Shown: positions 2,324-60,630 of the stretch, one piece after another
How positions within the stretch are numbered: the stretch's first letter is position 1
Layout: each line of letters opens with the position of its first letter
DNA from: an uncultured Candidatus Saccharibacteria bacterium
GTDB taxonomy: Bacteria; Patescibacteriota; Doudnabacteria; UBA920
Assembly: GCA_964521955.1 (NCBI GenBank)
Contig: CAZFTX010000006.1
Span: 1-60,630 of the forward strand
Direction: 5' to 3'
DNA: 60,630 nucleotides
The notes under the pieces: generated by a model
Databases searched by the model: none
What the model was told of the DNA's origin: nothing
Seen by the model: the letters and a program-made list of their open reading frames with translations, nothing else
Position numbers and translations under genes: made by a program

Positions 2324-5286
2324 TGTCAAAACTACTGGATAATTTAAATAAAGAGCAACAGGAGGCCGTTACCCATGTAGACGGCCCTTTGCTTATTGTA
2401 GCCGGAGCCGGAACCGGCAAGACTACGGTATTAACCAGAAGAGTTGCTTACTTAGTAGAGCAAAACCTGGCCGGTCCTCAAGAAATTTTAAGTTTAACCT
2501 TCACAGAAAAAGCTGCGGCAGAAATGAGTGAAAGAGTAGAATTACTCCTACCTTTGGGTTACTATGATTTATGGATTTCCACTTTTCACAGTTTTTGTGA
2601 ACGCATTTTAAAAAATCATTCTTTAGAAATAGGCCTACCCACTGACTTTAACCTGCTTAACGAAACCAAGCAGTGGATGTTGATTTACAAAAATTTAGAA
2701 AAGTTTAACTTAAATTACTACCGCCCCCTAGGTAACCCAAGTAAATTTATAGATGCACTCTTAAGTCATTTTTCTCGCTGCAAAGACGAACTAATCACCC
2801 CAGAAGCTTATTTGGAATACGCACAAGGTTTAAGGTCGAATTTAGATTCAGTTAATAAAGTCAAAAGTAACCTGTCTGCCGGCAAGGCAGGAAAATCAAA
2901 AGTAAAAAGTTCTTCAACCTTTCCACTTTCTGAAATTGATGAAACAGAAATCTCCCGCATAGAAGAAGTGGCAAATGCTTACAACGTTTACCAAAAACTT
3001 CTTGTAGAAAATAACAGCTTGGATTTTGGGGATTTAATAAATAAAACTTTAGAACTTTTCCTAAAACGCCCTAAAATTCTTAATTTTTACCAAAACAAAT
3101 TTAAGTTTTTCATGGTGGACGAATTTCAAGACACCAACTTTGCTCAAGCCCAACTTGTCAGCCTTTTAGCCGGGAAAAAGGCAAATTTAGTAGTGGTGGG
3201 CGACGACGATCAGTCAATTTACAAATTCAGGGGTGCTTCAGTTTCCAATATTTTAAAATTTCAAGAAATTTACCCTCAGACCAAGCAAGTCACTTTACAA
3301 GAAAATTACCGCTCTACCCAGGAAATTTTAGATCTAGCTTATAACTTTATCCAAAAAAATAACCCTGACCGACTTGAGCCTAAAATGGGAATAAACAAAA
3401 AACTCAAAAGTAACACAAAAGAAACCGGCGAGATAAAAGTTTTAGAGTCCGAAGACTTAAGCGGCGAACTAAACATGGTTGCAAAAAAAATCTTGGACTT
3501 AAAAACTACAGAAAACTCATGGAATGACTTTGCAGTTTTAATTCGCTCCAGAGCAGCTGCGGACGAACTTTTGCCGGTTTTTGCCAAAACCCATATTCCT
3601 TTTACTTTCGCTTCCAATAAAGGACTGTATAAAAAACCAATTATTTTGGACATTTTGGCTTACTTAAGACTTCTAGATAACGCCCATGAGTCCACCTTTC
3701 TTTACCGAGTCTTAACTTTACCAAGGTTCAGCTTAAAATACGAAGACCTTTCAGCGGTCATAAATGTTTCAAACAAAAAAACTTTATCACTCTATGAAAG
3801 CTTAAACTTAGGACTAACTTCAGCAGAACTTTCAGAAGAAGCAAAAAAGAAAATTAAGCTACTGAAAGAAGCACTTTCAAAACACGCCGACCAAATGAAA
3901 ACCTCAACAGCTTTAGAAATGTTTGTGTTTTTAATTGCTGACTTAGGCATTGAAGCCAAACTTAAAGAAGAAACTTTGGAAAATGCGGAAAGCAGGGAAC
4001 TTTTGGACCAATTTTACAAAAAAATTGAAGAGTTTGAAAAAGAAAATGAAAACAAAAGTCTGCACAGCTTTCTTAATAATTTAAATCTAGAACTACAAAG
4101 TGGGGAAGAGGGGGAAATCAAATTTGACCCAAATCTTGGGCCAGAGAGCTTGAAAATCTTTACCGTCCACGCCGCAAAAGGCTTGGAGTTTAAATATGTC
4201 TTTATAATTAACCTAGTTGAACAACGTTTTCCCACTAGAGAAAAAAAGGAAAGTATTGAAATTCCTGCGGCCTTAGTCAAAGACATATTGCCGGAAGGGG
4301 ATTTTCACTTGCAAGAAGAACGCAGGCTGTTTTACGTCGGCCTGACCAGAGCAAAAACCCATCTATACCTTTCCTGGGCTAAAGACTACGGTGGTGTTAA
4401 AACAAAAAAACCATCGCCTTTTTTAGTTGAAACACACTTAGTCCCCAGCGACCATGTAAGCAAAGCTACTGGTAAAGTTGTATTTAACCAAATCAAAAAC
4501 CTTCCAGAAGTTTACAAAAATCTCCCAACCAAGTTCTCTTTTTCACAACTTTCAGACTTTGAAAGCTGTCCTTTAAAATACAAGTACGCTTACTTCCTAA
4601 AACTACCTTTACCCGGTAATGCGTATTTCAGCTTTGGAAGTACTATGCATAAAGTTTTTGAGGAATTTTTAAAAATCTATAGAAATAACCAGGCACTTGT
4701 TCAAGTAGACTTGTTCGGCAAAAAACCTTCTGACTTGCCTTTGCCGGAATTTAAAGTTCTAGAACAATTTTACACTAAATATTGGATAGACGACTGGTAT
4801 GCAAGTAAAAAACAAAAAGAAGAATACAAGCAAGCTGGAACCAAAATGCTCAAAACTTTTTACGACCACTTAAACTTAAACCCCGCCATACCCAAACATA
4901 TTGAAAAGTTTTTCAAACTAAAATTAGGAACATACGACTTTGTGGGTAAAATTGACAGGGCAGACGAAACACCTAATGGGCTTGAAATTTTAGACTACAA
5001 AACAGGAAAAGTGCCAAAAACCAAAAAAGATTTAGACCAATTATATATATATCAGATGGCGGCACAAGAACACTTGGGTGAAAAAGTTTCCGGTTTAAAA
5101 TATTGGTACTTACAGGAAAATAAGTTTGTGGAAGAAGAGTTGGCGACCTTACCTGAGTTAAACGAACTAAAAGAGAAACTTTTAGCAACCATGGAAAAAA
5201 TTGTCTATGTGGTTAAACACGATTTGTTTTTAGAAGAACACAAAAAACTTAAAAATCACGATTGCGATTTTGTTCACTTTGAATAA
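2323..5286 (+). CDS. UvrD/PcrA-type SF1 helicase with C-terminal PD-(D/E)XK-like nuclease domain
   Basis: SF1 motifs AGAGTGKT, DEFQD, VGDDDQSIYKFRGA, YRS, TVHAAKGLEF and RLFYVGLTRA. C-terminal IDRADE...LEILDYKTGK block. ATG 2323 overlaps the PIN stop (TAATG); the track start 2281 is an upstream alternative. Confidence 0.85.
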   Translation: MSKLLDNLNKEQQEAVTHVDGPLLIVAGAGTGKTTVLTRRVAYLVEQNLAGPQEILSLTFTEKAAAEMSERVELLLPLGYYDLWISTFHSFCERILKNHSLEIGLPTDFNLLNETKQWMLIYKNLEKFNLNYYRPLGNPSKFIDALLSHFSRCKDELITPEAYLEYAQGLRSNLDSVNKVKSNLSAGKAGKSKVKSSSTFPLSEIDETEISRIEEVANAYNVYQKLLVENNSLDFGDLINKTLELFLKRPKILNFYQNKFKFFMVDEFQDTNFAQAQLVSLLAGKKANLVVVGDDDQSIYKFRGASVSNILKFQEIYPQTKQVTLQENYRSTQEILDLAYNFIQKNNPDRLEPKMGINKKLKSNTKETGEIKVLESEDLSGELNMVAKKILDLKTTENSWNDFAVLIRSRAAADELLPVFAKTHIPFTFASNKGLYKKPIILDILAYLRLLDNAHESTFLYRVLTLPRFSLKYEDLSAVINVSNKKTLSLYESLNLGLTSAELSEEAKKKIKLLKEALSKHADQMKTSTALEMFVFLIADLGIEAKLKEETLENAESRELLDQFYKKIEEFEKENENKSLHSFLNNLNLELQSGEEGEIKFDPNLGPESLKIFTVHAAKGLEFKYVFIINLVEQRFPTREKKESIEIPAALVKDILPEGDFHLQEERRLFYVGLTRAKTHLYLSWAKDYGGVKTKKPSPFLVETHLVPSDHVSKATGKVVFNQIKNLPEVYKNLPTKFSFSQLSDFESCPLKYKYAYFLKLPLPGNAYFSFGSTMHKVFEEFLKIYRNNQALVQVDLFGKKPSDLPLPEFKVLEQFYTKYWIDDWYASKKQKEEYKQAGTKMLKTFYDHLNLNPAIPKHIEKFFKLKLGTYDFVGKIDRADETPNGLEILDYKTGKVPKTKKDLDQLYIYQMAAQEHLGEKVSGLKYWYLQENKFVEEELATLPELNELKEKLLATMEKIVYVVKHDLFLEEHKKLKNHDCDFVHFE

Positions 5287-8039: not shown

Positions 8040-8175
8040 TAATTGACAAAAATACTTGTCGCTGTCACATAAATTAGAAGCTTAAGCCAAACCACTGACA
8101 AGAAAATCTACCAATATTTTACTTTAGCTTTAATTAAGCGTATTATTGAGGTGGGAGGAGAAAATTTTTAATATC

Positions 8176-11100
8176 ATGAAAACCAAAAAACGAAAACTTT
8201 TTGAGTCAGGAGAAACTTCTCAACCTATTGATTTCACAAAATTTTTTAATGCTTTTAAAAAATCAGCGTCAATTTTGCTGATTTTTTTGTTTATTTTAAC
8301 ACCCTTAACACCAGCATTTGCACAGGAAGCTATTTTAGACAATTTAACTACAAACCCGACTACAGAAGATAATACCCCTTTGCCTGGGGTAGCTCCTACC
8401 AATGAAATTCCTAGTTCCGATATTCCAACAGAACAGGACAGTATTTCCGAAACAATAGATTCCACTGCAGGCCCTAATCCAAATGTTGATACTGTCGTTG
8501 TGCCCCAAGCTTCTAACCCTGAAGATGTTAAAGAAATATTACCGGAAGAAACTGTTCCACTTGGTGAAGAGGCATCGCTTTCAGATGAAGAGGGGTTAGA
8601 AACAGAAGACCCTCCACAGGGATTAATGGACTCCGGAGAAGGCTATGACGGTCCGGTTGACCCTAAAGCAAATGAGGTTGGACAGCGCCTTGCTCGGACT
8701 GATGAACATACCGGAGCTTTGGTTACAAATGTACCGATTGTATTACCACCGGGAAGAAACGGGATGCAACCAAATTTAGCACTTTCCTATAACTCTCAAA
8801 ACCAGGAAGATGGTAGTCCATTTGGTTATGGTTGGACACTTAACATTCCGTACATTGAGAGAGTCAATAAAATGGGGACTGAAAAATTATACAGTACCAC
8901 TAGCCCGGTTTTTTTCAGTTCGTCTTTAGACGGAGAACTTGCCACCACAACTGCTACTACAACTTATATTTCCAGGGTAGATTATGGTGACATGCGTTCC
9001 TATACCTTTTCCAATAATCAATGGACTGTTGTGGATAAATCCGGAACACAATATAAATTTGGACATGCCAGTTCCACACAACAGACCAGCACTTCTTCCG
9101 CTACACAAATCTATAAATGGATGTTAGAGGAGGTGCGTGACAAAAACGACAATTTCATTAAGTACACTTATTACAAAGATAGCGGCCAAATTTACCCCGA
9201 CACTATTTATTATACCGGCACCAGTACTGTAAACGGTATATTTAAAGTCGAATTTTTGCGGGAGAGCAGGATTGACGCTTTCCCTTCTTTCAAAACAGGT
9301 TTTTCGGTAAAGTCTTTATATCGAATATACCAAATAAAAGTTTATGTTAATAATGATGTAGTTAGAAAGTACGATTTAACTTACACGGCAGGCAACAACA
9401 CTGTTCGGTCTTTGCTCAATGTAGTCCAAGAATCCGGCTATGTGGAAGGTTCAAGTACACCGCAATCTTTGCCTTCTACAACTTTTACCTACCAAACAAG
9501 TAACGAAGGATTTGCTACAGACGCAAGTCGCAGCTTTCCAAGTGATGCGAAGCTAAATTTTGAATGGGGTGATAAACTCGCAGACGTTAACGGAGATGGT
9601 TTAGTTGATTATATGTCAAGTTATACTCATAATGGACAACAAACATATCAGAAGGTATATTTGCAGAAACCCGACGGTACTTGGGCAACTTCAACAACTT
9701 ATACTATTCCTTTTGTTTTTTATTATACTACATGGCTTTCTTTTCATTACACATACCTTTTAATAGTAGACGTTAACGCTGATGGCAGGATTGACCTTGT
9801 CCACGAGGACGGAAGTGTTTACATTAATAACGGTTCAAACTGGGTTGAAGATGTAAATTGGAATACGCCAGTTTATCTTTCTGATCCTTATCCTCCTCAT
9901 ACTGACGACGTTAACGGCGATGGGTTGCCTGATCTTGTTGCCAAGAATAACTCCGCGGTGTTCTTAAACACCGGTACTACCTGGGAGAGCGCGACTTCCA
10001 CAGTCTTTTCTGCGCCTTCAACAACGGAATTTTTTACAGACATAAATAACGATACTCTTACAGACTCGCTAATTTTAACTAGTAGCCCCAGCATAGCTCT
10101 TAGTAATGGAATAGGGGTTTGGGTAAACACAACTTCTACCCCGACCAGTTCATTACCGGGTCTTACCATCCCTTTAGATATTGACGGAGACGGTATGGCC
10201 GATCTGTTTGAAAGCAGTGTGGATTCGGGGGTTGCCCATAGGGACGCTTATCAAGGCACAGGACAAAGTTGGAACCAAAAGACCAACTGGATTCAGACTG
10301 ATGTAAATTTAAGATATAATATTCAGCCAACTGTAGACCGAGCACTGGATTGGAATGGCGACGGGTTACCGGATTTTTCAGTTGGAGGCGCCGCAAGGAT
10401 AAACCAAAACAAAAAGGCGGATTTGCTAACAAAAATAGATTATCCCACTGGCGGTTTTTCCGCAATTACTTACAAACCTTCAACCCAATATTCTACAAGT
10501 AATGTTTTAGACAACCCCTCCTTACCTTTGATTGTTTATACTGCCCAAAAGATTGAGAGTAACGACGGTACTTCCACCAGCACCAGTGACACTTATGTTT
10601 ATAAAGGTGGTAATTATTATTTTAACAACCCTTGGGACAAAAAATTTGCAGGTTTTGAACAGATTGTAAAAACTGACGCTGCCGGCAACGTTACTAAAAC
10701 TTTTTTCCACACTGCCAGCAGTACTGATTCTAGTCATGGCGAATATTTAGACAACTTGTGGAAAATAGGCAAGCCATATAGAGTCGAAAAATACGACAAT
10801 AACAGCAATCTGGTAAAAAAGACTATAAACAAATGGGATGTTGCAACTTCAACTCAAGCCGCGGGGTTTGTTAAGCTTGCTCAATCAGTTGTTTTTGACT
10901 ATGGCTCTAGCACAACACCTAAAAGCATGGCAGAAACCTATACTTATGATAATTCTACTGGCAACCTGACACAAAAAGTTGAGTATGGAGAAGTAACCGG
11001 AAGCGATGACGGTACTTTTAGCGATACAGGCACTGACGATTTTACTACCACATATACTTACGCTACAAGTTCTACCACAACGGTTATGAGTTTGCTGGCC

Positions 11101-14100
11101 AGTGACTCAACCGTTGACCATAGCAGTAACAAAGCTAAAGAAAGTAGGTATTATTATGACAACCTGGCTTTACGCATTGTTAATCTTGGAAATTTAACCA
11201 AAAGAGAAGACTGGAAAGTTAGCAGTACATACATAGACACCGAAAAAACATATAATAGTTATGGATTGGTGGTTACGGAAAAAGATCCGAGAGATAAAAC
11301 TACTACATATTCATACGACACAAACAATTTATACCCAACAAGAGTTACAAATCCAGTAAGTCATGTAAGTACTTATTCTTACGATTATTCATCCGGGAAA
11401 GTTGCAACTTCTACGGATCCAAATGGCAATATTTTTGTAAATGTCTATGACGGTCTAGACAGAGTGTTAAAACAAAAACAACCAGACCCGGCCGCAACTT
11501 CAACTCTCTTAACAGCGACGGATTTCACTTATACAGATATTGCCAGAGCAATGAGTGTTAAGAAAAGTAATTACTTGGATTCAGCAACCACTACTGACTC
11601 TTATATTTATTTGGACGGTTTGGGCAGAAAAATACAGGAACGCAAAGAAGCCACTAGCACCTATTTTTCGGTTAAAGACTTTGTCTACAACAACCGTGGG
11701 CTACTGTTAAAAGAAACACTCCCATATTTTTCTAGCGGGAGCGGTACAACCACAGCTACTAGCACTACCGCTCTTTATACTACTTATGTGTATGATGCGT
11801 TGCAGAGGGTTACGGCAACTAACAACGCAATAAGTACAAGCACAAACTCTTACTCAAATTGGAAGACCACAACTACAGATTTACGGGGTAAGGTAAAGCA
11901 CTACTATAGGGACGCTTATAATAATTTAATAAAGGTTGAGGAAGAAAATTTTGCAGCATCATCTTCAACGCCGTCTGAGTTATATAGTAATTCTTTATAT
12001 AACGATGCAAACCTTGTTGCCTATTATCGTTTGGAGGATTCCGCTGACAGTAAAGGGAGTTACACTTTAAGTGCTAATGGTAGCCCTTCTTCAGTTTCGG
12101 CCAAATTTAACAACGGCTATTCCTACAGTGCTTCTCCATACCACAATACTGGTTCGAATTTGGGTATTATCGGTGGTGCTGTAACAATTAGTGGTTGGGT
12201 TAAGATAAATGCAAATCCCTCTTCTGGGTCAACGTGGTATTTAGCTTCCCAATTTAACAGCTCAGCGAAGGTTGGCTATGATTTCTGGTATGGAAATAGT
12301 GGCGGAACTTATACATTCTCGGTAAATCGCGGAAAATCAGGAGTGTCGGATAATCCGGTAAGCGTTGCAGGTGATTTAGGCACTTCTGTTTACCATCATG
12401 TTGTTTTAACCTATGACGGTACGTCTCTTAAGGGTTATTTAGATGGCAATTTATTTGGAACACTCAGTACCAGCGGTAACGGTTCTGGAGGGTCAGTTAA
12501 CGATTTTGTTATAGGGTGTGCTTATAACGGCACTTCCTGTGGAAATATTAGTTGGGATGATATGGCGGTATTCAGTCGCGCTTTAAGTGCTACAGAAGTC
12601 ACTAGTTTGTATTCTGCAGGGTATTCTACATATATTTATACCACTAACTATGCTTATAACTATTTGGGAAATCTTACAAATATAACGGACGCTTCCGGTA
12701 ATGTCCGTAATTTTACCTATGACGGTCTGGGAAGAAGGTTAACAGCGCAAGACCTTCATGCTACAGGTGATAGTACTTATGGTACTTACACATACACATA
12801 TGACGACGCAGGGAACCTGACCTCTAAAGTTGATGCAAAAAACCAAACGATAAATTACACCTATGACAATATTAACCGCCCCCTAACAGAAGATTATACT
12901 GGTCAGGCTGGAACTGAAATTACTAATACTTACGACACGTGTACGCAAGGCAGGGGCAGAATGTGTACCGCTTCTTCCTCGGCTGTAACCTTAACTAATA
13001 CATATAATGCTTTAGGACAACTTACACAAGAAGTAAAAGTAATAAGTGGTAACAGCTATACAAGTACCTACACCTATGACAGACAGGGTAATCAACTTAT
13101 TTTAACAAATCCTGACAATTCGCAAGTTAAGTATATTTATGACAGTGCGGGCATGGTAGACCGGGTACAAAGGAAAGAGTCAACCGACGGGAGCTATACA
13201 GATGTAGTTTCAAGTATTGACTACAATCCATTAGGCCAGGAAACTGTAATCACTTTTGTTAATGGAGCCATAACTACCAACACATATGACGACAGTAAGT
13301 TATACCGCTTAGTTCGTAAAGTTACAACCATCCCTCAAGCAGAAGGGTTAATGGGAGAAATACCAGACTTTTCTGAAATTATAGACGAATTACCAGCGCC
13401 TGAAACCTCCACAAGCACTCCTTCCTCAACTTCTACCGAAGATTCTCTTGCCTCCTCAAGTCCTCTTTCTTTAAACAGTGAATCTCCGGGATTTTTTGCT
13501 AGTCTTTGGCAAACTGTTACGAATGGATTTGACAGAGTCATAAGTAGAATCGTTAAAACAGGAAGTTATATCGCCAGTTTATTTACCGTCAAAACAGCTA
13601 TGGCGGCTGCTATTGAGCTGTATTCCACTGACTTATTCAACGACGCTAACCTGACAGCGTACTACAGAATGGAAAATACAAATGACAGTAAAAATAGTTA
13701 TCATCTTACAGCAGTTAGTAGCCCCTCTTCTGTTTCCGCCAAATTTAACAACGGCTATTCCTATGGCGGTTCGCCCTACCACCATACCAATTCAAACTTA
13801 GGGATTAACGGCGGAGCAGTGACTATTAGCGGTTGGGTTAAGATTAATGCAAATCCCTCTTCTGGTACTACATGGTATATAGCTTCGCAGTTTAACAGCA
13901 CTTCAGATGTTGAATATGACATTTGGTATGGTAACAGCGGGGGAACCTATACACTTTCAGTTAACCGAGGTAAGTCAGGAGTGTCAGACAATCCTGTGAG
14001 CGTTGCGGGTGATTTAGGCACTTCTGTTTACCATCATGTAGTTCTGACTTACGACGGCACTACCTTAACTGGGTACCTAGACGGTTCTTCCTTTGGAACC

Positions 14101-15780
14101 AGCGGAACAAGTGGAAACGGATCAGGTGGGTCGGTTAATGATTTTGTCATAGGCTGTGCTTACAACGGCACTTCTTGCGGAAACATAACATGGGATGATA
14201 TAGCAGTATTTAACAGAGCTCTTACTTCAGGTGAAGTGTCGGATTTGTATAACGGGGACACTCCTACTCCTACAACCGTAATTCAGGACTTAACTTATAC
14301 TTATGACAACAACGGCAACATTACTGAAATAGCTGATGATTCGGAAACACATACTTCTAAAACTACGAATTATACTTACGACGACTTAAACCGTTTGACC
14401 GCCGCTTCAACCACCCTAGCAAGTTTTGGTAGTAATTATAACCAGACCTATACTTACGACGCTATTGGGAATATTACCAGTAAATCTGACCAAGGAACCT
14501 ATACCTATGCAGGAAATGGTTATACAAACCCTCACGCAGTTACAAGTATAGGAACCGCCACCTCTACCTATGACAACAACGGCAACCTACTTGCTATTAA
14601 AACTAACAATGCTACCACTACCCTTTACACTTGGGACTATAACAACCTCCTTATCAGAGCTTCTTCTACAACTTCCGGCTTTAGGGCCACTTCAACCTAC
14701 GACTCTTTTGGTCAAAGAGCTAAGTATGTAACAGGTACTTCTTCTCAAACAACTACTTACTATCCAAGTAAGGGGTATAATATAACAGGGTCTACTCCTA
14801 CTAAACACATCTTCCTACCAAATGGAACCATGATAGCTACAATAGTAGGTACAGGAACATCTACAACTGTAAGTTACATACATACTGAGCATTTAGGTGG
14901 AACTAACGTGGTTACCAATTCAGCAGGAGATGCCGTAACTCAGCTATTGGATTATTATCCTTATGGTACAAGGAGATTGAACGAAGGTACGGATGTTTCC
15001 CAGCGTGAATTTACTGGACATGAGTATGATGAAACTGAAGATTTAGTTTATATGGGGGCAAGGTACTATAATGCAAACATTGGTAAATTTATAACCCAAG
15101 ATCCTGTTTTTTGGGATTTTGATTATTCTAGGCTGACTGATCCGCAGATTTTTAATAGCTACACATATGCAAGGAATAATCCAATAACTTATACTGACCC
15201 AGATGGTAGAGATGCAGTATTAAAATTTGATGAGAAAAATAAAACAATAATTATTAGTTCGACGATATACATTTATGGAGAAGGTGCTACTCAGGATGTT
15301 GCAAATAGAATGCAGAAAGATATTTCTGAAGTATGGGATACGGGGTGGACATATACAGACGAAAAGACTAATACAAAGTATTCAGTAAAATTTGAGGTAG
15401 AAGTTAGAGTGACAAAGCATTCTTGGACACATGGATATAGAAATGATTCGAATGTTATACAGGTGGGTGGAGTGGATCGTTCATATGTTGACGCAAAAAA
15501 AGCCAAAAAAGGGGCTTGGAGGGAAAATGAACCAGACCCAGCACCACATGAATTTGGACACTTGTTGGGTTTAGATGATAGATACTCCGATGAGGGCGGT
15601 TCAGATGAGGGATGGGAGGGTAACATAATGGCGGAGCCTGCCATGGAAGGAAAAGTAGAACAAAAAAATATTGATTCAATAATTAAACCATACGCAGAGA
15701 GCCATAATAATAGGTGGTTTCCGAAGTGGAATAAATCCACAACCCACCACGTTGCTCCTCGTAACGGTAATTTTAGATAA
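8176..15780 (+). CDS. giant SpvB/TcB-TcC-like RHS (YD-repeat) polymorphic toxin with C-terminal Zn-metallopeptidase payload
   Basis: Signal-like N-terminus (ILLIFLFILTPLTPAFA/QEA). SpvB-like LPPGRNGMQPNLALSYNSQ..FGYGW. Five DxNGDG FG-GAP/VCBS repeats (9580-10380). Many YD repeats (YTYDxxGN/R). RHS core end YTYARNNPITYTDPDG (DPDG = 15196-15207). HEFGHLLGLDDRY (HEFGH = 15547-15561). ATG 8176 preferred over the track TTG at 8146. Confidence 0.9.
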   Translation: MKTKKRKLFESGETSQPIDFTKFFNAFKKSASILLIFLFILTPLTPAFAQEAILDNLTTNPTTEDNTPLPGVAPTNEIPSSDIPTEQDSISETIDSTAGPNPNVDTVVVPQASNPEDVKEILPEETVPLGEEASLSDEEGLETEDPPQGLMDSGEGYDGPVDPKANEVGQRLARTDEHTGALVTNVPIVLPPGRNGMQPNLALSYNSQNQEDGSPFGYGWTLNIPYIERVNKMGTEKLYSTTSPVFFSSSLDGELATTTATTTYISRVDYGDMRSYTFSNNQWTVVDKSGTQYKFGHASSTQQTSTSSATQIYKWMLEEVRDKNDNFIKYTYYKDSGQIYPDTIYYTGTSTVNGIFKVEFLRESRIDAFPSFKTGFSVKSLYRIYQIKVYVNNDVVRKYDLTYTAGNNTVRSLLNVVQESGYVEGSSTPQSLPSTTFTYQTSNEGFATDASRSFPSDAKLNFEWGDKLADVNGDGLVDYMSSYTHNGQQTYQKVYLQKPDGTWATSTTYTIPFVFYYTTWLSFHYTYLLIVDVNADGRIDLVHEDGSVYINNGSNWVEDVNWNTPVYLSDPYPPHTDDVNGDGLPDLVAKNNSAVFLNTGTTWESATSTVFSAPSTTEFFTDINNDTLTDSLILTSSPSIALSNGIGVWVNTTSTPTSSLPGLTIPLDIDGDGMADLFESSVDSGVAHRDAYQGTGQSWNQKTNWIQTDVNLRYNIQPTVDRALDWNGDGLPDFSVGGAARINQNKKADLLTKIDYPTGGFSAITYKPSTQYSTSNVLDNPSLPLIVYTAQKIESNDGTSTSTSDTYVYKGGNYYFNNPWDKKFAGFEQIVKTDAAGNVTKTFFHTASSTDSSHGEYLDNLWKIGKPYRVEKYDNNSNLVKKTINKWDVATSTQAAGFVKLAQSVVFDYGSSTTPKSMAETYTYDNSTGNLTQKVEYGEVTGSDDGTFSDTGTDDFTTTYTYATSSTTTVMSLLASDSTVDHSSNKAKESRYYYDNLALRIVNLGNLTKREDWKVSSTYIDTEKTYNSYGLVVTEKDPRDKTTTYSYDTNNLYPTRVTNPVSHVSTYSYDYSSGKVATSTDPNGNIFVNVYDGLDRVLKQKQPDPAATSTLLTATDFTYTDIARAMSVKKSNYLDSATTTDSYIYLDGLGRKIQERKEATSTYFSVKDFVYNNRGLLLKETLPYFSSGSGTTTATSTTALYTTYVYDALQRVTATNNAISTSTNSYSNWKTTTTDLRGKVKHYYRDAYNNLIKVEEENFAASSSTPSELYSNSLYNDANLVAYYRLEDSADSKGSYTLSANGSPSSVSAKFNNGYSYSASPYHNTGSNLGIIGGAVTISGWVKINANPSSGSTWYLASQFNSSAKVGYDFWYGNSGGTYTFSVNRGKSGVSDNPVSVAGDLGTSVYHHVVLTYDGTSLKGYLDGNLFGTLSTSGNGSGGSVNDFVIGCAYNGTSCGNISWDDMAVFSRALSATEVTSLYSAGYSTYIYTTNYAYNYLGNLTNITDASGNVRNFTYDGLGRRLTAQDLHATGDSTYGTYTYTYDDAGNLTSKVDAKNQTINYTYDNINRPLTEDYTGQAGTEITNTYDTCTQGRGRMCTASSSAVTLTNTYNALGQLTQEVKVISGNSYTSTYTYDRQGNQLILTNPDNSQVKYIYDSAGMVDRVQRKESTDGSYTDVVSSIDYNPLGQETVITFVNGAITTNTYDDSKLYRLVRKVTTIPQAEGLMGEIPDFSEIIDELPAPETSTSTPSSTSTEDSLASSSPLSLNSESPGFFASLWQTVTNGFDRVISRIVKTGSYIASLFTVKTAMAAAIELYSTDLFNDANLTAYYRMENTNDSKNSYHLTAVSSPSSVSAKFNNGYSYGGSPYHHTNSNLGINGGAVTISGWVKINANPSSGTTWYIASQFNSTSDVEYDIWYGNSGGTYTLSVNRGKSGVSDNPVSVAGDLGTSVYHHVVLTYDGTTLTGYLDGSSFGTSGTSGNGSGGSVNDFVIGCAYNGTSCGNITWDDIAVFNRALTSGEVSDLYNGDTPTPTTVIQDLTYTYDNNGNITEIADDSETHTSKTTNYTYDDLNRLTAASTTLASFGSNYNQTYTYDAIGNITSKSDQGTYTYAGNGYTNPHAVTSIGTATSTYDNNGNLLAIKTNNATTTLYTWDYNNLLIRASSTTSGFRATSTYDSFGQRAKYVTGTSSQTTTYYPSKGYNITGSTPTKHIFLPNGTMIATIVGTGTSTTVSYIHTEHLGGTNVVTNSAGDAVTQLLDYYPYGTRRLNEGTDVSQREFTGHEYDETEDLVYMGARYYNANIGKFITQDPVFWDFDYSRLTDPQIFNSYTYARNNPITYTDPDGRDAVLKFDEKNKTIIISSTIYIYGEGATQDVANRMQKDISEVWDTGWTYTDEKTNTKYSVKFEVEVRVTKHSWTHGYRNDSNVIQVGGVDRSYVDAKKAKKGAWRENEPDPAPHEFGHLLGLDDRYSDEGGSDEGWEGNIMAEPAMEGKVEQKNIDSIIKPYAESHNNRWFPKWNKSTTHHVAPRNGNFR
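11977..12612 (+). repeat. intragenic LamG/ConA-like unit 1 (636 nt)
   Basis: ELYSNSLYNDANLVAYYRLED...GWVKINANPSSG...VYHHVVLTYDG...NDFVIGCAYNGTSCGNISWDDMAVFSRAL. Same length as 13615-14250 and identical to it at most positions. Confidence 0.8.
13615..14250 (+). repeat. intragenic LamG/ConA-like unit 2 (636 nt)
   Basis: ELYSTDLFNDANLTAYYRMEN...GWVKINANPSSG...VYHHVVLTYDG...NDFVIGCAYNGTSCGNITWDDIAVFNRAL. Confidence 0.8.
14686..14897 (+). repeat. 212-bp handle inside the main rhs gene, identical to 16859-17070
   Basis: CCACTTCAACCTACGACTCTTTTGGTCAAAGAGC ... CATACTGAGCATTTAGG read identically at both sites; divergence starts right after. Confidence 0.9.
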
Positions 15781-21971: not shown

Positions 21972-22135
21972 ATCACTTGGAGGGACCAACCTATGACCAC
22001 CCCTAAAATTCTTCGAATTTTGGGGAACCCCGATTTAGGTTTTTCCCTTCCAAACCCTCGCTTACGCTCGGCCTCCCTTTTCCATACTGTGTCCTGCGGC
22101 CAGGAATGAATCCTGAGCCTCCAGACAGCTATTAA
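21972..22135 (+). repeat. GC-rich structured intergenic element, copy R2
   Basis: Starts right after the gyrB stop with ATCACTTGGAGGGACCAACC. Same long hairpin (CCCCTAAAATTC-TTC-GAATTTTGGGG), box CTCGCTTACGCTCGGCCTCCCTTTTC, hairpin CAGGA-ATGAA-TCCTG (22101-22115) and tail AGCTATTAATTGAC. Confidence 0.8.
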
Positions 22136-22193
22136 TTGACTTAGCGGCTTAAATGTTCTAGACTATCACAGTATTTAAACACTAATTTATCTC

Positions 22194-27967: not shown

Positions 27968-28087
27968 CTACCTCCTCTCTTCAGGCAACTGTGGTAGTTC
28001 CAGATCCTTACGAATCCAGAAAAACAAAACAACCAATACAAGAGAAGCTCCAAAATCGATAAACCTCTCGGACAATTTTGCCATCAT
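27968..28087 (-). CDS. 39-aa single-TM peptide ORF (cassette A, ORF1)
   Basis: GAGGAGG (28099-28093) sits 5 nt before ATG 28087. MMAKLSERFIDFGASLVLVVLFFWIRKDLELPQLPEERR. Confidence 0.5.
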   Translation of the reverse strand: MMAKLSERFIDFGASLVLVVLFFWIRKDLELPQLPEERR

Positions 28088-36087: not shown

Positions 36088-36163
36088 CAAAATTATTCTA
36101 ATTGCTCTAATTACTCTAAAATACTTTAGGATAATTTGAAATTAGGTCAATTAGGTTAATTTG
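36088..36163 (+). repeat. ~75-bp palindromic miniature element (copy 1)
   Basis: Ends AAATTATTCTAATTG (36090-36104) and CAATTAGGTTAATTT (36148-36162) are imperfect inverted repeats. Both 15-mers recur exactly at 53118-53132 and 53173-53187. Confidence 0.7.
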
Positions 36164-37613
36164 TTGATTCATCAACAACTCCTTCCATGACATTGGAAGG
36201 GGAAACGTCGAAAGTTTTATCCAAATTCTTAAAGCTGGTTTTGTCTGCGTCAAAGAACAAATCCACCTGACCAGTAGGACCGTTTCTGTGCTTTTTAATG
36301 TGAATTTCAGCCACATTTGGCCTTCTGGAATCCTTACCTTTATACATGTCTTCGCGATAAATAAACATAACCACGTCAGCATCTTGCTCAATGGAACCCG
36401 ACTCTCTAAGGTCGGCTAATTGCGGAACTTTGTCCGGCCTGTTTTCCACACCACGTGAAAGCTGGGACAAAGCTAAGACAGGAATATTTAGCTCTCTGGC
36501 CAAAATTTTCAAAGACCTGGAAATTTCTGAAACTTCCTGAACACGATTATCAGTACTGCGCCCAGACATAAGTTGTAAATAGTCAACTACTAAAAGCCCC
36601 ACACCATGCTCACTTTGCAGTCTTCTCGCCTTTGTCCTTATTTCCATAATATTACTTCCCGCCGCGTCATCTATAAAAATTGGACTTTCTGAAAGCACAC
36701 CCATTGCTTCGCCAATTTTTTCAAAATCTTGATCATTTAAATGTCCGGTTCGAATCTTCCATAAGTTAACGTCGCTTTGCGCTGAAAGCAACCTGTCTAC
36801 CAGTTGGTCTTTGCTCATTTCCAAAGAAAATATTCCAACCGGAACTTTCAAACTCACACCTACATGGCGAATAATATCTAAGGCCAAAGAAGTTTTTCCC
36901 ATGGAAGGCCTTGCAGCCAAAATTACCAAATCAGATTTTTGTAAACCACCAAGTTTTTGGTCCAAGTCAATAAATCCACTGGCCAAACCACGTAATTTTC
37001 CTTGGTCACGGTGCAGTTCATCTATTCTTTCAAAAGTTGTCGACAAAATAGTGTTAATGGAAACAAAATTTTGTTTTAAATGCTGCTGCGAAACAGCAAA
37101 CAACCTTTGTTCAGCTTTGTCTAAAATGTCTTCAATTTCGTTTTGCTCTTCATAGGCCAAGTTAGAAATATCACCGGCAGTTTGAATAAGCCTTCTTAGT
37201 GTACCTTTTTTTCTAACAATAAAAGCATAATGAACCACATTGGAAGCAGTGGGTACGGCATTTACTAGTTCGGTTAAATAGCTAGAACCGCCAATTTTAT
37301 CCAAAAGTTTTTTTTCTTCCAAAACATTCGTTAAAGTCAAAATGTCTATGGAAGTATTTTTTGCAAACAAAGACAAAATACATTCGTAAATTTGTTTATG
37401 GCGGTTTTCGTAAAAATCATCGGCCACAATTAAATCCGCAACTTTAATAATTGCGTCTTTGTCTAACATTAAACTGCCTAAAACCGAAACTTCAGCTTCA
37501 GTGTTTTGGGGGGTCAATCTTGCAATAGTAGAGTTGTCCATAGAATGATACTTGGATGGATAAACCCGAGCTGCGGAGCTATAAGAATTAAATGTTTGAA
37601 ATTCTGTAGTCAT
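36156..37613 (-). CDS. dnaB: replicative DNA helicase DnaB
   Basis: PQNTEAEVSVLGSLMLD, AARPSMGKTSLAL, LVVDYLQLM, ALSQLSR, IEQDADVVMFIYR. Confidence 0.95.
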   Translation of the reverse strand: MTTEFQTFNSYSSAARVYPSKYHSMDNSTIARLTPQNTEAEVSVLGSLMLDKDAIIKVADLIVADDFYENRHKQIYECILSLFAKNTSIDILTLTNVLEEKKLLDKIGGSSYLTELVNAVPTASNVVHYAFIVRKKGTLRRLIQTAGDISNLAYEEQNEIEDILDKAEQRLFAVSQQHLKQNFVSINTILSTTFERIDELHRDQGKLRGLASGFIDLDQKLGGLQKSDLVILAARPSMGKTSLALDIIRHVGVSLKVPVGIFSLEMSKDQLVDRLLSAQSDVNLWKIRTGHLNDQDFEKIGEAMGVLSESPIFIDDAAGSNIMEIRTKARRLQSEHGVGLLVVDYLQLMSGRSTDNRVQEVSEISRSLKILARELNIPVLALSQLSRGVENRPDKVPQLADLRESGSIEQDADVVMFIYREDMYKGKDSRRPNVAEIHIKKHRNGPTGQVDLFFDADKTSFKNLDKTFDVSPSNVMEGVVDESTN

Positions 37614-37709
37614 CTGTGGCTTATTACAGATGTTCTGTAGTCATTTTAGGTGCAATAAGTAAATTGGGCAAATCCACATCAAGGGGATAGTGGGGATAGA
37701 TCTTTAGTA

Positions 37710-37738
37710 TTGACAAAACTTACTTTTTGTGCTATAAT
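37710..37738 (+). promoter_or_regulatory. consensus sigma70 promoter of GC-rich cassette B
   Basis: TTGACA (37710-37715), 17 nt, TATAAT (37733-37738). Confidence 0.7.
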
Positions 37739-37890
37739 TATCGCCAGTTTTTACATTATTCTTTTAAAATTAAAGCGATATTTAACTTTTTTCAAATTAG
37801 GCCTTGTCTTATTCTTAAATACATGCTCTAATTCTTTTTACTGGGAAATCAAATCGCCAGTAATCTCAACCACAAACAGGGAGGTAAAAA

Positions 37891-38052
37891 GTGGAAAAAT
37901 TCTGGGAAGTTCGACCCGAAGGCTTTTTGGGAAGTAACGAAGAAAAATTCTGGATCGAGACAATAGGAGCCATCATCATGTTCACTCTGGTGAATGTGCT
38001 TCTGAAACTGGTCATTCTCGCAGCAGCTCTGGAGGCGACGTTCTTGCGATAG
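37891..38052 (+). CDS. 53-aa single-TM peptide ORF (cassette B, a)
   Basis: GGGAGG (37879-37884) sits 6 nt before GTG 37891. MEKFWEVRPEGFLGSNEEKFWIETIGAIIMFTLVNVLLKLVILAAALEATFLR. Confidence 0.5.
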   Translation: MEKFWEVRPEGFLGSNEEKFWIETIGAIIMFTLVNVLLKLVILAAALEATFLR

Positions 38053-38060
38053 GGGGTACA

Positions 38061-38207
38061 ATGCCAACAGCTAAGAAGGCCATTACCTTTATGGCAATGG
38101 CTCTGATATTGTCTTTCTTCGTATTTATCATCTGGTGGTTGGATCACCGAAATCCACACCACAAGCAACAACGGACACCAGCCCAGGCGAAGATGCGCCT
38201 GGCATGA
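38061..38207 (+). CDS. 48-aa single-TM peptide ORF (cassette B, b)
   Basis: AGGGGG (38051-38056) sits 4 nt before ATG 38061. MPTAKKAITFMAMALILSFFVFIIWWLDHRNPHHKQQRTPAQAKMRLA. Confidence 0.5.
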   Translation: MPTAKKAITFMAMALILSFFVFIIWWLDHRNPHHKQQRTPAQAKMRLA

Positions 38208-38220
38208 AAAGAGGGGGGTC

Positions 38221-38328
38221 ATGAAAATCTGGCTAACAGACATCGGTCTGCCAATTGTAGCCGTGTTGGCGTATCTAGCAACACTCGCCTGGATGGGGAC
38301 AGCAGTCTACCGCCTCTCCTGCGGCTAA
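38221..38328 (+). CDS. 35-aa single-TM peptide ORF (cassette B, c)
   Basis: GAGGGGGG (38211-38218) lies just before ATG 38221. MKIWLTDIGLPIVAVLAYLATLAWMGTAVYRLSCG. Confidence 0.5.
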   Translation: MKIWLTDIGLPIVAVLAYLATLAWMGTAVYRLSCG

Positions 38329-38357
38329 AAACCAAGCACCAATTGAAGGAGGAACGC

Positions 38358-38384
38358 ATGAAGCAAAAACGAGGGCCGCCCTAG
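38358..38384 (+). CDS. 8-codon mini-ORF ending inside the terminator stem (cassette B, d)
   Basis: GAAGGAGG sits 5 nt before ATG 38358. MKQKRGPP. The stop lies in the hairpin loop. It may be non-functional. Confidence 0.25.
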   Translation: MKQKRGPP

Positions 38385-38414
38385 CAGTACTTTAGGCGGC
38401 CCTTTGAATTTTTT
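38373..38414. terminator. bidirectional intrinsic terminator shared by cassette B (+) and cysS (-)
   Basis: GGGCCGCC (38373-38380) / GGCGGCCC (38395-38402). T-tract TTTGAATTTTTT on plus; CGTTTTT on minus. Confidence 0.8.
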
Positions 38415-39927
38415 ATATACTTATTTTCTTTTTAACTCTTTGACCTTCGGGAGTGTCCATAACTTCATATCCTAGGTCTTCTATTTCTTTTCTTAACTCA
38501 TCGGATTTTTTAAAATCCTTTTGCTGTTTAATTATCTCCCTTTCATTTAACAAATTCTGGATTTCTTCTGGTATATCTTGTTCTTTTTGTTTTGAGCTAG
38601 CTAAGTTTAAACCTAAAACTTTATCAAATTTTAAAATTGTGGCTTTTTTTATTTCTAATGATATCAACTTATTGTCTACAAATCTCCACAAAACAGCCAA
38701 CGCTTTAGGTATATTTAGATCATTATTAATTGCTTGATTAAAATCCTCATCTACATCCTCATCTACATTCCCGATAGGTACATCCGCATAAAAATCAATA
38801 TCATATAGTCTAAGCCTAGCAATTCGAGCTGACTCTAAAGCTTCCCAAGTAAAATTTAATTGGGTGCGATAGTGAGCTTGTAAACACAAATAACGAAAAT
38901 CTAAAGAATTAAATCCTTTTTCTTTTAACATATCAAGTGTGATAAATTTTCCCAAAGATTTTGACATCTTTAAATTGTCAGATTCACCACATTTTGGGCA
39001 CTTTCCATAATTATCTTCGACTTTAGCAATCTCAACCTTTACTATACTTGAGTGTGTTGAAAACAAATGACCACAATTAAAACATTTATAAGGTGGTAAA
39101 ATTAAAAATTCTCCGTGCATCCAAATGTTCGCTAGTGGAGTTTCAAAAGCAGCTTCGCTTTGAGCAATTTCATTTGTATGATGCGTACCAATATGATCTA
39201 CACCACCTGTATGAATATCAAAAGGTTGTCCAAGTAGTTTTCTAGATATTGCACTACATTCTATATGCCAGCCAGGGAACCCTTCGCCCCATGGGCTTGT
39301 CCAATGCAAAATGTGATTTTTATATCGTCCAACTAAAAAAAACCATAAAGCGAAGTCAGTTGGATTTTTTTTATCTTTATCGACAATAACATCTTCACGC
39401 GCACCTGTCTTTTTTTCCAAAAGTTTCTGACCAGAAAGTTTTCCATAATCAGGAAATTTTGAAGTATCAAAATATATTGCTTGATCACCTTTATAAGCAA
39501 ATCCCTTATCTAATAATATTTTAATAATATCAATCTGTTCGTTAATACTATCGGTTGCTCGAAGAACTTGATTAGGTTTAATTATATTTAATTCTGCCAA
39601 ATCCTTAAAAAACTTTCCCTCATATTTTTTCGCAACATCAAGAGGGGACAGACCCTCACGCTTAGCACCAACTTCCATCTTATCCTGACCTTCGTCACCA
39701 TCACCAACCAAATGACCTACGTCAGTGATATTCATGGCATGATTAACTTCATAGCCATTGTATTGCAAAGCACGATGCAAAATATCTTCAAAAATATATG
39801 TTCTTAAATTGCCAATATGAGCAAAGTCATAAACAGTCGGCCCACAAGCATATAGCTGAACAGTTTCGTTATTTATTGGAGCAAGCTCCTCAACTTTCTT
39901 AGTAAGAGTATTATATAATTTCAACAT
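38413..39927 (-). CDS. cysS: cysteine--tRNA ligase with Zn-ribbon insertion before KMSKS
   Basis: CGPTVYDFAHIGN (HIGH-like), GWHIECS, HHTNEIAQSEA, KMSKSLGKF. A ~44-aa insert with CFNCG...CPKCG (38971-39102). Confidence 0.93.
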   Translation of the reverse strand: MLKLYNTLTKKVEELAPINNETVQLYACGPTVYDFAHIGNLRTYIFEDILHRALQYNGYEVNHAMNITDVGHLVGDGDEGQDKMEVGAKREGLSPLDVAKKYEGKFFKDLAELNIIKPNQVLRATDSINEQIDIIKILLDKGFAYKGDQAIYFDTSKFPDYGKLSGQKLLEKKTGAREDVIVDKDKKNPTDFALWFFLVGRYKNHILHWTSPWGEGFPGWHIECSAISRKLLGQPFDIHTGGVDHIGTHHTNEIAQSEAAFETPLANIWMHGEFLILPPYKCFNCGHLFSTHSSIVKVEIAKVEDNYGKCPKCGESDNLKMSKSLGKFITLDMLKEKGFNSLDFRYLCLQAHYRTQLNFTWEALESARIARLRLYDIDFYADVPIGNVDEDVDEDFNQAINNDLNIPKALAVLWRFVDNKLISLEIKKATILKFDKVLGLNLASSKQKEQDIPEEIQNLLNEREIIKQQKDFKKSDELRKEIEDLGYEVMDTPEGQRVKKKISI

Positions 39928-59761: not shown

Positions 59762-59837
59762 GCCGATGTAGCTCAGCTGGTAGAGCAACTCCATGGTAAG
59801 GAGTAGGTCTCCGGTTCAATTCCGGACATCGGCTCCA
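59762..59837 (+). tRNA. tRNA-Thr (anticodon GGU), CCA encoded
   Basis: Hand-folded cloverleaf: acceptor GCCGATG/CATCGGC, D arm GCTC-AGCTGGTA-GAGC, anticodon arm ACTCC-ATGGTAA-GGAGT, T arm TCCGG-TTCAATT-CCGGA, discriminator T, CCA. Confidence 0.95.
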
Positions 59838-59928
59838 GATAATTAGATTTTTGTTAAATTGTGAATAGTGAAATGGTTAAAGTTTTTAGCTATTTCAGTA
59901 TCCACAATCTTTGGTCAGGAGGATCAGG

Positions 59929-60630
59929 ATGAAAGCACTTTGCAGTTACGTAATTCTGGCATGCCTAGTCCTGCCAGCAACCGCAGACGAAATCAACGGC
60001 AAACTTGCCTCGACCCCAATGGAGTGGAAAGTGTATACAGCACCCCACATGGCTCTGTTCCAAAGAGGGGTCGAAGCCATCAAGCCGGCTCAAATTCACT
60101 CCCAAGCCTACAAACAGTGGGTGATGGTAGGGTACGAGGCACAGCCTGTACTCTTGAAAGAGGCTATGCTCTGTGTTCAGCTTTACAAGAAGAGCGGCGA
60201 TGAAGCAGAGCACTGCTTCAGGTCTGTTGACTTGAAAATCTACGCCATCTCAGAAGCCGTCAAGCAGGCTCGACTTGAAGCAGTCCTCGCCGTCAACCTA
60301 CTTGCCGTTGATGTTGCAAAGAAGATTCTCGCCGAAAGCCGGGAAGAAAGAGAAAAAGCGGAAGCGGACATGATGTGGCCGGAATACGAATCTGACGCAC
60401 GCCAAATCCTTGAGAATACGGCTGTCGACAAATCTCTGAAGGCTTTCAGACAATCGGTTCAAACTTTGCGCGCCCGTAGCGCAAAGGAACACCAAAAACT
60501 TCGCAAGCAAGCACGCTTGCACCCCGACCCGGGACGCGACACACCAGTCGCGCCCCGGATTTTCTTTTTACAAACAAATGACCTCCTCCCCGGGCTAAAG
60601 CCCGGGGTTTCCTTTTCCGGCATGAAAACC
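59929..60630 (+). CDS. partial GC-rich ORF: secreted helical protein (hypothetical), open to the window end
   Basis: AGGAGG (59918-59923) sits 5 nt before ATG 59929. Signal-like MKALCSYVILACLVLPATA/DE. 234 codons with no stop, checked codon by codon. Missing from the ORF track because no stop is reached. Confidence 0.5.
   Translation, partial: MKALCSYVILACLVLPATADEINGKLASTPMEWKVYTAPHMALFQRGVEAIKPAQIHSQAYKQWVMVGYEAQPVLLKEAMLCVQLYKKSGDEAEHCFRSVDLKIYAISEAVKQARLEAVLAVNLLAVDVAKKILAESREEREKAEADMMWPEYESDARQILENTAVDKSLKAFRQSVQTLRARSAKEHQKLRKQARLHPDPGRDTPVAPRIFFLQTNDLLPGLKPGVSFSGMKT

Follow-up and report, generated by a model that had tools for sequence, protein, structure and literature searches.

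A clade-restricted operon of predicted single-pass membrane micro-proteins in the dnaB-cysS gap of a Candidatus Doudnabacteria genome

Small single-pass membrane proteins such as KdpF, AcrZ, MgrB, MgtS and CydX, and operons of such proteins such as psbEFLJ, are 30-55 amino acids (aa) long, with one helix and short polar ends; they can lie back-to-back in one operon and are routinely missed by gene callers. They are the described proteins most similar to those of the element that we analyze here, a cassette at positions 37710-38415 on the plus strand of a 60,630-nucleotide (nt) stretch of Candidatus Doudnabacteria DNA (contig CAZFTX010000006.1; the whole stretch is called the window below). A direct reading of 37400-38700 places this cassette between dnaB and cysS, both of them minus-strand genes. 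Judged from its sequence, the cassette is a clade-restricted ORFan operon of putative single-pass membrane micro-proteins. Its open reading frames (ORFs) share length, single helix and short polar ends with the proteins named above and have likewise escaped most gene callers. Unlike them, however, the cassette has no match in Pfam or NCBIfam, no partner complex or transporter is encoded next to it, and it is found in one narrow clade, where its evolution is fast and mosaic. The peptides have the generic properties of micro-proteins, namely a length of at most 60 aa, a hydrophobic segment that can span the membrane, and a conserved frame, start codon and Shine-Dalgarno (SD) motif, under selection that is weak (pN/pS, the ratio of non-synonymous to synonymous polymorphism, is 0.46-0.9).

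The first-pass annotation of this DNA had described a self-contained micro-protein operon, and the promoter, the SD-led ORFs and the terminator can indeed all be located in the sequence. The promoter, P1 (37710-37738, plus strand), consists of TTGACA at 37710-37715, a 17-nt spacer and TATAAT at 37733-37738; it matches the sigma-70 consensus at 12 of 12 positions, carries a TG extension, and is the sole 12/12 site in our promoter scan. An A+T-rich stretch of 28.6% G+C (37739-37878) follows, and then a body of 526 nt (37879-38404) with four ORFs tiled along it. ORF1 (37891-38052, 53 aa) begins with GTG, 6 nt after the motif SD1, GGGAGG (37879-37884). ORF2 (38061-38207, 48 aa) is preceded at 4 nt by SD2, AGGGGG (38051-38056), which overlaps the TAG stop codon of ORF1, and ORF3 (38221-38328, 35 aa) is preceded at 2 nt by SD3, GAGGGGGG (38211-38218). 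Three back-to-back ORFs of the annotated lengths, each led by an SD at a distance of 2-6 nt, are therefore present in the window, although the number three proves to be a lineage-specific state, as relatives have a further cistron, ORF0, or lack ORF1. Each of the three peptides contains one hydrophobic helix, as had been claimed, the best 19-residue Kyte-Doolittle means being 2.51, 2.52 and 1.92 for ORF1, ORF2 and ORF3. These helices are uniformly hydrophobic and not amphipathic, and a tblastn of ORF1-3 against the window revealed no meaningful similarity among them. ORF1 has an acidic N-terminal part and one transmembrane (TM) helix with the motif N-x-LLKLV, and it includes an exact, in-frame 12-nt direct repeat with copies 48 nt apart (37894 and 37942). 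In ORF2, an IWWLD-x-x-NP motif at the membrane edge accompanies the single TM helix, and a basic tail, DHRNPHHKQQRTPAQAKMRLA, with a net charge of about +4 follows. ORF3, also with one TM helix, ends in VYR[L/H]SCG.

The composition of the body sets it apart from the rest of the window. The window contains 37.3% G+C and its 526-nt windows have a mean of 37.2% with a standard deviation of 3.5%, whereas the body reaches 50%; values of at least 49% are reached elsewhere only by an island at the right end of the window (about 59.9-60.6 kb). This formal computation agrees with the G+C deviation suggested earlier from one hand-counted line (38041-38100), for which we also obtain 28/60. At codon positions 1/2/3 the G+C fractions are 0.54/0.31/0.56 in ORF1, 0.47/0.41/0.57 in ORF2 and 0.53/0.47/0.61 in ORF3, and 0.45/0.37/0.33 in ten native genes. 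Native genes were also said to lack SD motifs, and we find them to be SD-poor, since among 40 long native ORFs only about 4 have an SD-like motif upstream of a plausible start. The body itself contains three SD-led ORFs that reach 30 aa and encode a hydrophobic helix, and none of its 2000 dinucleotide-preserving shuffles yielded even one.

An assembly chimera can be ruled out, because the segment dnaB-cassette-cysS occurs at 100% identity across both junctions in two independent Logan assemblies, SRR16481187 and SRR16481186. Further alleles come from closer relatives. A 90%-identity DnaB cluster with five members led to the contigs L085 (SRR32414321), L086 (SRR14271343) and L087 (JGI 3300045392); L088, which equals L089 (ENA ERZ27275116, SRR5165171), was reached via a 64-aa gene call that contains ORF0; and L090 and L091 were reached via a Joint Genome Institute (JGI) call of ORF2, L091 overlapping L087 at 100%. 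This gives five additional alleles, namely L085, L088 (= L089), L086, L087+L091, and L090. In these five alleles from independent samples the peptide frames, their starts and their SDs are kept. All five full-length alleles retain ORF2, ORF3 and ORF4 with an SD before every ORF, the peptides remain hydrophobic in all alleles, and in all the additional alleles the ORF2 SD encloses the stop codon of the ORF before it.

ORF2 and ORF3 each have an uninterrupted frame, an SD and a start codon in the six alleles that include them. ORF2 has 48-49 aa in every full-length allele. Its identity to the window peptide is 65-74% in L085 and L091 and 36-41% in L086, where the nucleotide identity drops to 49% with several indels and the frame is still open. 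Sixteen columns of ORF2 are invariant; IWWLD-x-x-NP and the basic tail ending in TPA...R-x-A are kept, and the N-terminal half changes almost every residue and stays hydrophobic. ORF3 has exactly 35 codons, with an SD and an ATG or GTG start, in six alleles down to 64% nucleotide identity, and even at that identity it keeps LATLA...G..VYR[L/H]SCG. The window ORF3 is 95% identical to that of L085, where dnaB-recR is 88% identical, and 64% identical to that of L091, where dnaB-recR is 94.7% identical. This incongruence points to recombination between cassette alleles. Within the near-identical pairs L085/L088 and L090/L091 (98.9% and 99.6%), the few differences inside the cassette are mostly non-synonymous and in ORF3, and both pairs have Gly/Ser at ORF3 residue 9, possibly a recurrent or recombining polymorphism. 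Gene callers have dealt unevenly with these ORFs. ORF1 and ORF2 were recognized independently by the JGI caller, none of the ORFs by the Logan calls, and on six of eight contigs the Prodigal-type calls contained not one of the real ORFs. In L086 the caller placed a 95-aa gene opposite the micro-ORFs (2858-3145, plus strand in the locus), a call that is spurious because its frame is not conserved in the other alleles.

Gene content varies in the 5' part of the cassette. ORF0 is intact as an extra first cistron in L085, L086, L087, L088 and L091; it encodes 35-42 aa with the helix motif NF-x-VRIV and follows an SD of GGGAGGG or AAGGGGG. In the window only a relic of its 5' end remains, from TACTGGGAAATCAAAT (37839-37854) onward to 37862 on the plus strand, and pairwise alignment to the intact L086 ORF0, ATGTACTGGAAATCAAAT, shows that the SD and ATG have been deleted and the frame shifted. 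ORF1 has 31 aa in L085 and L091 and is absent in L086. The window ORF1 has 22 extra N-terminal codons in comparison with that shorter form, the 12-nt repeat included, and for its SD-start block the homolog in the 31-aa ORF1 of L085 and L091 is GGGGAGGTAAGTAATG. The stretch behind P1 had been described as a leader of about 150 nt. Such a stretch does follow P1, but part of it is the ORF0 relic together with a second promoter, P2 (37804-37832, plus strand), which consists of TTGTCT (37804-37809), a 17-nt spacer and the extended -10 element TGC-TCTAAT (37824-37832). P2 is conserved in all relatives: its core, ATG[C/G]TCTAATTC, with TTGnnn 17-18 nt upstream, is present in all four aligned lineages. 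P1 is kept in the L085, L088, L087 and L091 lineages and deleted in L086, according to the alignments. We also considered whether the P1 transcript might pair over a long range between its 5' end and the start of ORF1, but rejected this, as such pairing is at chance level and not conserved.

At the other end, the cassette closes with an 8-codon ORF fused to a terminator. ORF4, MKQKRGPP-stop, occupies 38358-38384, 5 nt after SD4, GAAGGAGG (38345-38352); the earlier description of an 8-codon SD-led ORF was accurate apart from the start, which is at 38358 and not at 38359. A hairpin GGGCCGCC...GGCGGCCC at 38373-38402 (stem 38373-38380/38395-38402) lies 8 nt past the cysS stop and is followed by TTTGAATTTTTT on the plus strand and TCGTTTTTG on the minus strand. 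With T-runs on both strands and so close to the cysS stop, it can terminate both convergent transcripts, so that the GC-rich bidirectional terminator common to the cassette and cysS (38371-38415, both strands) is recovered as annotated. The 5' arm of the terminator stem consists of ORF4 codons 5-8 (CGA GGG CCG CCC), and the ORF4 stop codon lies in the loop. Five alleles agree at 55 of the 56 nt that run from the first base of ORF4 through the hairpin; all 12 predicted pairs are kept, the one substitution falls in the loop, and the flanks of this block differ by 12-20% in L086 and L091. Among 91 loci, the exact 27-nt ORF4 is present in 8 of 8 that bear the cassette and in none of the other 83. 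The invariance of the block may reflect stacked constraints only (two terminators plus SD and ORF), or it may mark a device that senses translation at the 3' end. Because its codons lie in the stem, a ribosome on ORF4 must melt the hairpin, and ORF4 may in this way tune termination or the stability of the mRNA 3' end. It is known that a Pro-Pro-stop ending slows translation termination. Similar features are found in attenuation of the pyrBI and trp type and in stalling at Pro-Pro-stop, where an SD-led mini-ORF has codons in one arm of a terminator or ends in Pro-Pro-stop. In contrast to pyrBI and trp attenuation, however, ORF4 is located at the 3' end of an operon and not in a leader, and downstream of it on the plus strand there is only the antisense of cysS.

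From this arrangement we propose that P1 and P2, as tandem sigma-70-type promoters, would drive one short mRNA in which each cistron would be translated from its own SD, unlike nearly all native genes of the genome. The cistrons appear to be packed for translational coupling, with the upstream stop inside the ORF2 SD. Three single-pass micro-proteins of 35-53 aa in the window, and four (ORF0-ORF3) in relatives, would be inserted side by side in the cytoplasmic membrane, where they may assemble into a small hetero-oligomeric complex or modulate some membrane process. Such a complex or modulator seems more likely than a toxin. The strong, constitutive-looking promoters and the lack of an antitoxin partner make a self-poisoning toxin or holin less likely, and the mosaic, rapid diversification suggests a role at a conflict interface, such as phage or host contact, immunity or exclusion, and makes a housekeeping role less likely. 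We assign the operon to the flexible, recombining share of the genome in its narrow clade, and we regard this explanation in full, including the role of the micro-proteins, as likely.

A more far-reaching version would see in the cassette a hypervariable 'conflict' locus of an episymbiotic bacterium of the Candidate Phyla Radiation (CPR), in which recombining membrane micro-proteins, kept in a private SD-dependent and G+C-rich regime within a genome that is otherwise SD-poor and has 37% G+C, would mediate phage exclusion or host-cell contact, and in which the terminal mini-ORF would be a sensor. Ribosome occupancy of MKQKRGPP-stop would then decide whether the terminator forms and would control antisense transcription into cysS. 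An invariant Cys codon of ORF3 lies just upstream of ORF4, inside a CCUCUCC stretch that is able to pair with the ORF4 SD. We consider this combination a very long shot; if it were true, it would represent a new 3'-end translation-sensing link between an accessory operon and an aminoacyl-tRNA synthetase gene.

Other explanations of the body have to be weighed against the reading as membrane micro-proteins of a complex or modulator type. The peptides could form a membrane-damaging module, that is, type I-like toxins, a holin- or viroporin-like pore or secreted cytolytic peptides directed against the producer, its host or a competitor. Like the type I toxins Hok, Fst, TisB and AapA1, they are small, hydrophobic, single-helix peptides encoded in an intergenic, lineage-specific and variable region, and their fast, mosaic and clade-restricted evolution is that of conflict genes. 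The cassette differs from type I toxin loci, however, in having three or four non-homologous peptides in one operon and in lacking a conserved antisense promoter or RNA. No Rfam small RNA matches the cassette, and the sole promoter-like site on the minus strand (38281 to 38254) is not kept, its -10 element TACAAT becoming TGCAAT in the L085 and L086 alignments. Instead of tight repression the cassette shows a consensus promoter and strong SDs without visible repression, which would be hard to tolerate for a self-toxin. The TM helix and strongly basic tail of ORF2 resemble those of holins and viroporins, and ORF2 has a sub-threshold Pfam match to Vpu (E = 0.019-0.1, below the cut-off), but a TM helix with a charged C-terminal tail is found in ORF2 only, there is no endolysin or prophage among the neighbours (cysS, dnaB, recR and L21), and neither PHROG, Pfam and PADLOC searches (at significance) nor viral contigs gave a match. 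Tandem SD-led micro-ORFs also recall phenol-soluble-modulin operons or multi-peptide leaderless bacteriocin operons; S. aureus psm-alpha, aureocin A70 and garvicin KS likewise have several very short SD-led ORFs on a short transcript with a strong promoter. The peptides of these systems, however, are mutually paralogous, amphipathic, mostly cationic and linked to ATP-binding cassette (ABC) exporter or immunity genes, whereas those of the cassette are unrelated to each other and uniformly hydrophobic, ORF1 is acidic, and no ABC exporter, transporter or immunity gene is encoded within 5 kb. A membrane-damaging function thus appears unlikely to us. The first-pass annotation had also suggested transporter modulators, and no transporter partner lies nearby.

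Two further explanations deny the peptides a function altogether. G+C-rich intergenic islands in A+T-rich genomes are often structured RNAs, and the body could be a structured non-coding or regulatory RNA, its ORFs and G-rich 'SD' patches being by-products. The weak purifying selection on the peptides, the hairpin as the most conserved piece of the cassette and folding z-scores of about -2.9 would agree with this, but these z-scores are equal on both strands, include the terminator and are uninformative. RNAalifold gives a covariation term of +0.36, which is no covariation support, and the only supported helix is the invariant terminator; Rfam has no match with E up to 10 save terminator-like ones. 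An RNA would also not account for ORF2 keeping its length, frame, start, SD and hydrophobicity at 49% nucleotide identity with indels, or for a coding anatomy that 0 of 2000 shuffles mimic, and we find this explanation highly improbable. Alternatively, the body might be the decaying, non-functional remnant of acquired DNA, either a frameshifted gene for a multi-pass membrane protein or a dying cassette, of which promoter and terminator are left. Decay would be consistent with pN/pS values up to 0.9 and little third-position excess, with the loss of ORF0 in the window and the absence of ORF1 in L086, and with three TM helices in different frames. It is difficult to reconcile, however, with an SD at proper spacing plus a start codon before every ORF of every allele, with ORF lengths that are stable across alleles, with a G+C at third codon positions (GC3) that has not decayed towards the 0.34 of the genome, and with the invariant ORF4/terminator block. 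Nor was a homolog in a longer protein found, either with the concatenated peptides or with ORF1 alone against 1.84 billion representatives. To such a remnant we give very little credence.

We therefore return to the reading of these ORFs as translated micro-proteins, which we hold with good confidence. Several observations weigh against it. The weak purifying selection and the slight third-position excess (variable sites of ORF3 number 14/14/21 per codon position overall and 9/7/9 in the closer set) mean that substitution patterns alone do not prove coding. An open frame of 35 codons is not rare by chance and is weak evidence alone, and in the window, L085 and L086, the three lineages checked, a 46-aa frame is likewise open on the strand opposite ORF3. 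The alleles are effectively four or five independent ones from one narrow clade, we found no link of the peptides to a partner protein or process, the window contains no rRNA from which an anti-SD could be read, and a subgroup of Parcubacteria has been reported to be without the anti-SD motif (PMC9297842). On the other strand and in other frames, a 125-aa antisense ORF of the window was rejected as a real gene, being truncated and diverged in relatives, and an alternative plus-strand frame through ORF3 is open in only three of six alleles.

The origin of the unusual composition is a question of its own. Strains that bear the cassette have 37.5-37.9% G+C and a dnaB GC3 of 0.34-0.38, and the GC3 of the ORF1-ORF3 cistrons is 0.52-0.67 in every allele, the most diverged included; that of L085 ORF0 is only 0.42. 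Had there been a single old import, it would have drifted to the bias of the genome. This suggests either that alleles have been exchanged with a G+C-richer pool or that G+C is selected, and such selection could favour, for example, a polycistronic mRNA that is compact, structured and SD-dependent. In other Doudnabacteria the G+C content reaches 45-51%, and the ORFs in their cysS-dnaB gaps often have strong SDs. The first-pass annotation had proposed that the module is foreign. The anomaly in G+C and SD use, the narrow clade and the hypervariable hotspot speak for this proposal, but a GC3 that stays high even where alleles have diverged strongly speaks against a simple recent import, and because no donor for the cassette was found, a foreign origin stays conjectural.

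Lying beside core genes, the cysS-dnaB gap is a hotspot at which lineage-specific small genes have been inserted repeatedly. A DnaB-based retrieval from Genome Taxonomy Database (GTDB) species genomes yielded 80 loci with identities of up to 85%, almost all of them labelled Candidatus Doudnabacteria or Patescibacteria. In these loci the gene order Na+/H+ exchanger-(PaaX-like ORF)-cysS-dnaB-recR-L21 is widely conserved, and the gap measures from 27 to 2586 nt, with less than 200 nt in about half of them. The larger gaps (for example, L003 2305-2935, L051 4826-5925 and L053 4171-5922) contain mutually unrelated ORFs, mostly on the strand opposite dnaB, as in the cassette, and often with strong SDs. 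The gap of L003, the closest species-level relative, holds an unrelated SD-led 40-aa single-helix ORF (2680-2802, minus strand) and a 72-aa acidic ORF, and this insert likewise ends in a terminator common to cysS. In L051, L053 and L055 the gap contains one ORF of about 330-385 aa each, which is sigma-factor-like by eye only. By tblastn and blastn the cassette itself is absent from all 80 species-level loci, and the peptides thus have alleles in the closer relatives but no counterparts at the species level. As to marks of mobile elements, the gap has no flanking repeats beyond chance-level 10-14-mers and no recombinase ORF, while attC sites were not searched with a dedicated model.

That none of the peptides belongs to a known family had been stated by eye, and database searches bear this out. 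Pfam, NCBIfam, PHROGs and PADLOC gave no significant match for any peptide or allele, only sub-threshold matches that reflect TM composition. Rfam 15 gave none in the region at the gathering score and only terminator-like noise with E up to 10, and ARAGORN found nothing in the cassette region. Exact-sequence look-ups of ORF1, ORF2 and the antisense 125-aa ORF returned no record, and the phage and plasmid collections yielded no blastn match to the cassette. Scans of viral contigs with ORF1, with profiles of ORF2 and ORF3 and with the terminator palindrome found nothing, nor did a word-indexed search of 5.8 billion proteins with concatenated ORF1+2+3. Two ORF1 matches from the exhaustive HMMER search of 1.84 billion representatives are long repeat proteins in which many weak repeats are summed, and we discarded them as artefacts. 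Two ORF2 matches from a metagenome scan were also discarded, as they are chance WWLDHRNPH 9-mers inside large unrelated G+C-rich proteins. The label 'YsdA (DUF1294 family)' that JGI gives to P0011, the 49-aa ORF2 homolog (L090 112-261, L091 469-618), is apparently an annotation error, because P0011 has no Pfam DUF1294 match with E up to 10.

On either side of the cassette, the ORF list places dnaB at 36156-37613 and cysS at 38413-39927, both on the minus strand, the stop codon of cysS being 38413-38415. Between the cassette and dnaB lies a 60-nt block (37643-37702, minus strand) that hardly varies among the four aligned relatives. It contains a dnaB promoter-like site from the promoter scan (TTGCCC-17-TAAAAT, 37671 to 37643, minus strand), a tandem GGGGATAG repeat (37683-37690 and 37692-37699) and AAATCCACA (37670-37678). 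The GGGGATAG and AAATCCACA motifs are DnaA-box-like with two mismatches each, and one L086 copy, TGTGGATAG, has one mismatch. A replication origin at this block was nevertheless rejected, given two mismatches per box and no skew switch at 37.7 kb. The DnaB of the relatives has 461 aa and starts with MDNSTI, and their upstream frame has stops, so that the true start of the window dnaB is probably M25 (37541) and not 37613. A 12-nt duplication in the window, TTCTGTAGTCAT (37602 and 37633), creates the longer dnaB ORF.

Elsewhere in the window, four other regions drew attention. The G+C-rich island at 59868-60630 (50-54%), directly after tRNA-Thr (59762-59837), contains an SD-led ORF (GGAGG, 6 nt, ATG 59929) of at least 234 aa that runs off the end of the window and has a signal-peptide-like N-terminus, MKALCSYVILACLVLPATA; the island shares the G+C and SD signature of the cassette and may likewise be an acquired segment. 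On the minus strand at 27968-28084, between genes ending at 27781 and starting at 28199, lies an SD-led micro-ORF of 38 aa with one hydrophobic helix (GAGGAGG, 8 nt, ATG; MAKLSERFIDFGASLVLVVLFFWIRKDLELPQLPEERR). A G+C-rich intergenic region at 21972-22193 has complementary GGAGGGACC...GGCCTCCC segments and an SD-led 38-aa ORF at 21993, and Rfam gives nothing for it with E up to 1; it looks more like a small structured RNA than a gene. Finally, a single ORF of 2544 aa occupies 8146-15780, with internally raised G+C (45-47% in parts).

The cassette is of a general kind already known, and its unusual traits are the use of SDs in an SD-poor genome, a GC3 that is elevated across diverged alleles, and an invariant mini-ORF that forms part of a bidirectional terminator. 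Members of the CPR/Patescibacteria combine very small genomes with a life attached to other cells, and to our knowledge it is largely unknown how their membranes deal with hosts and phages. Our findings indicate that conserved micro-protein operons hide in what is taken for 'intergenic' DNA of CPR bacteria, that a joint anomaly in G+C and SD use reveals such operons from raw sequence, and that they sit in recombination hotspots beside core genes. They also offer a handle on the anti-SD puzzle, since the native genes here are SD-poor and yet the operon keeps a strong SD for each cistron in every allele. If the peptides prove to be functional, ORF0-ORF3 would constitute four new ORFan micro-protein families.

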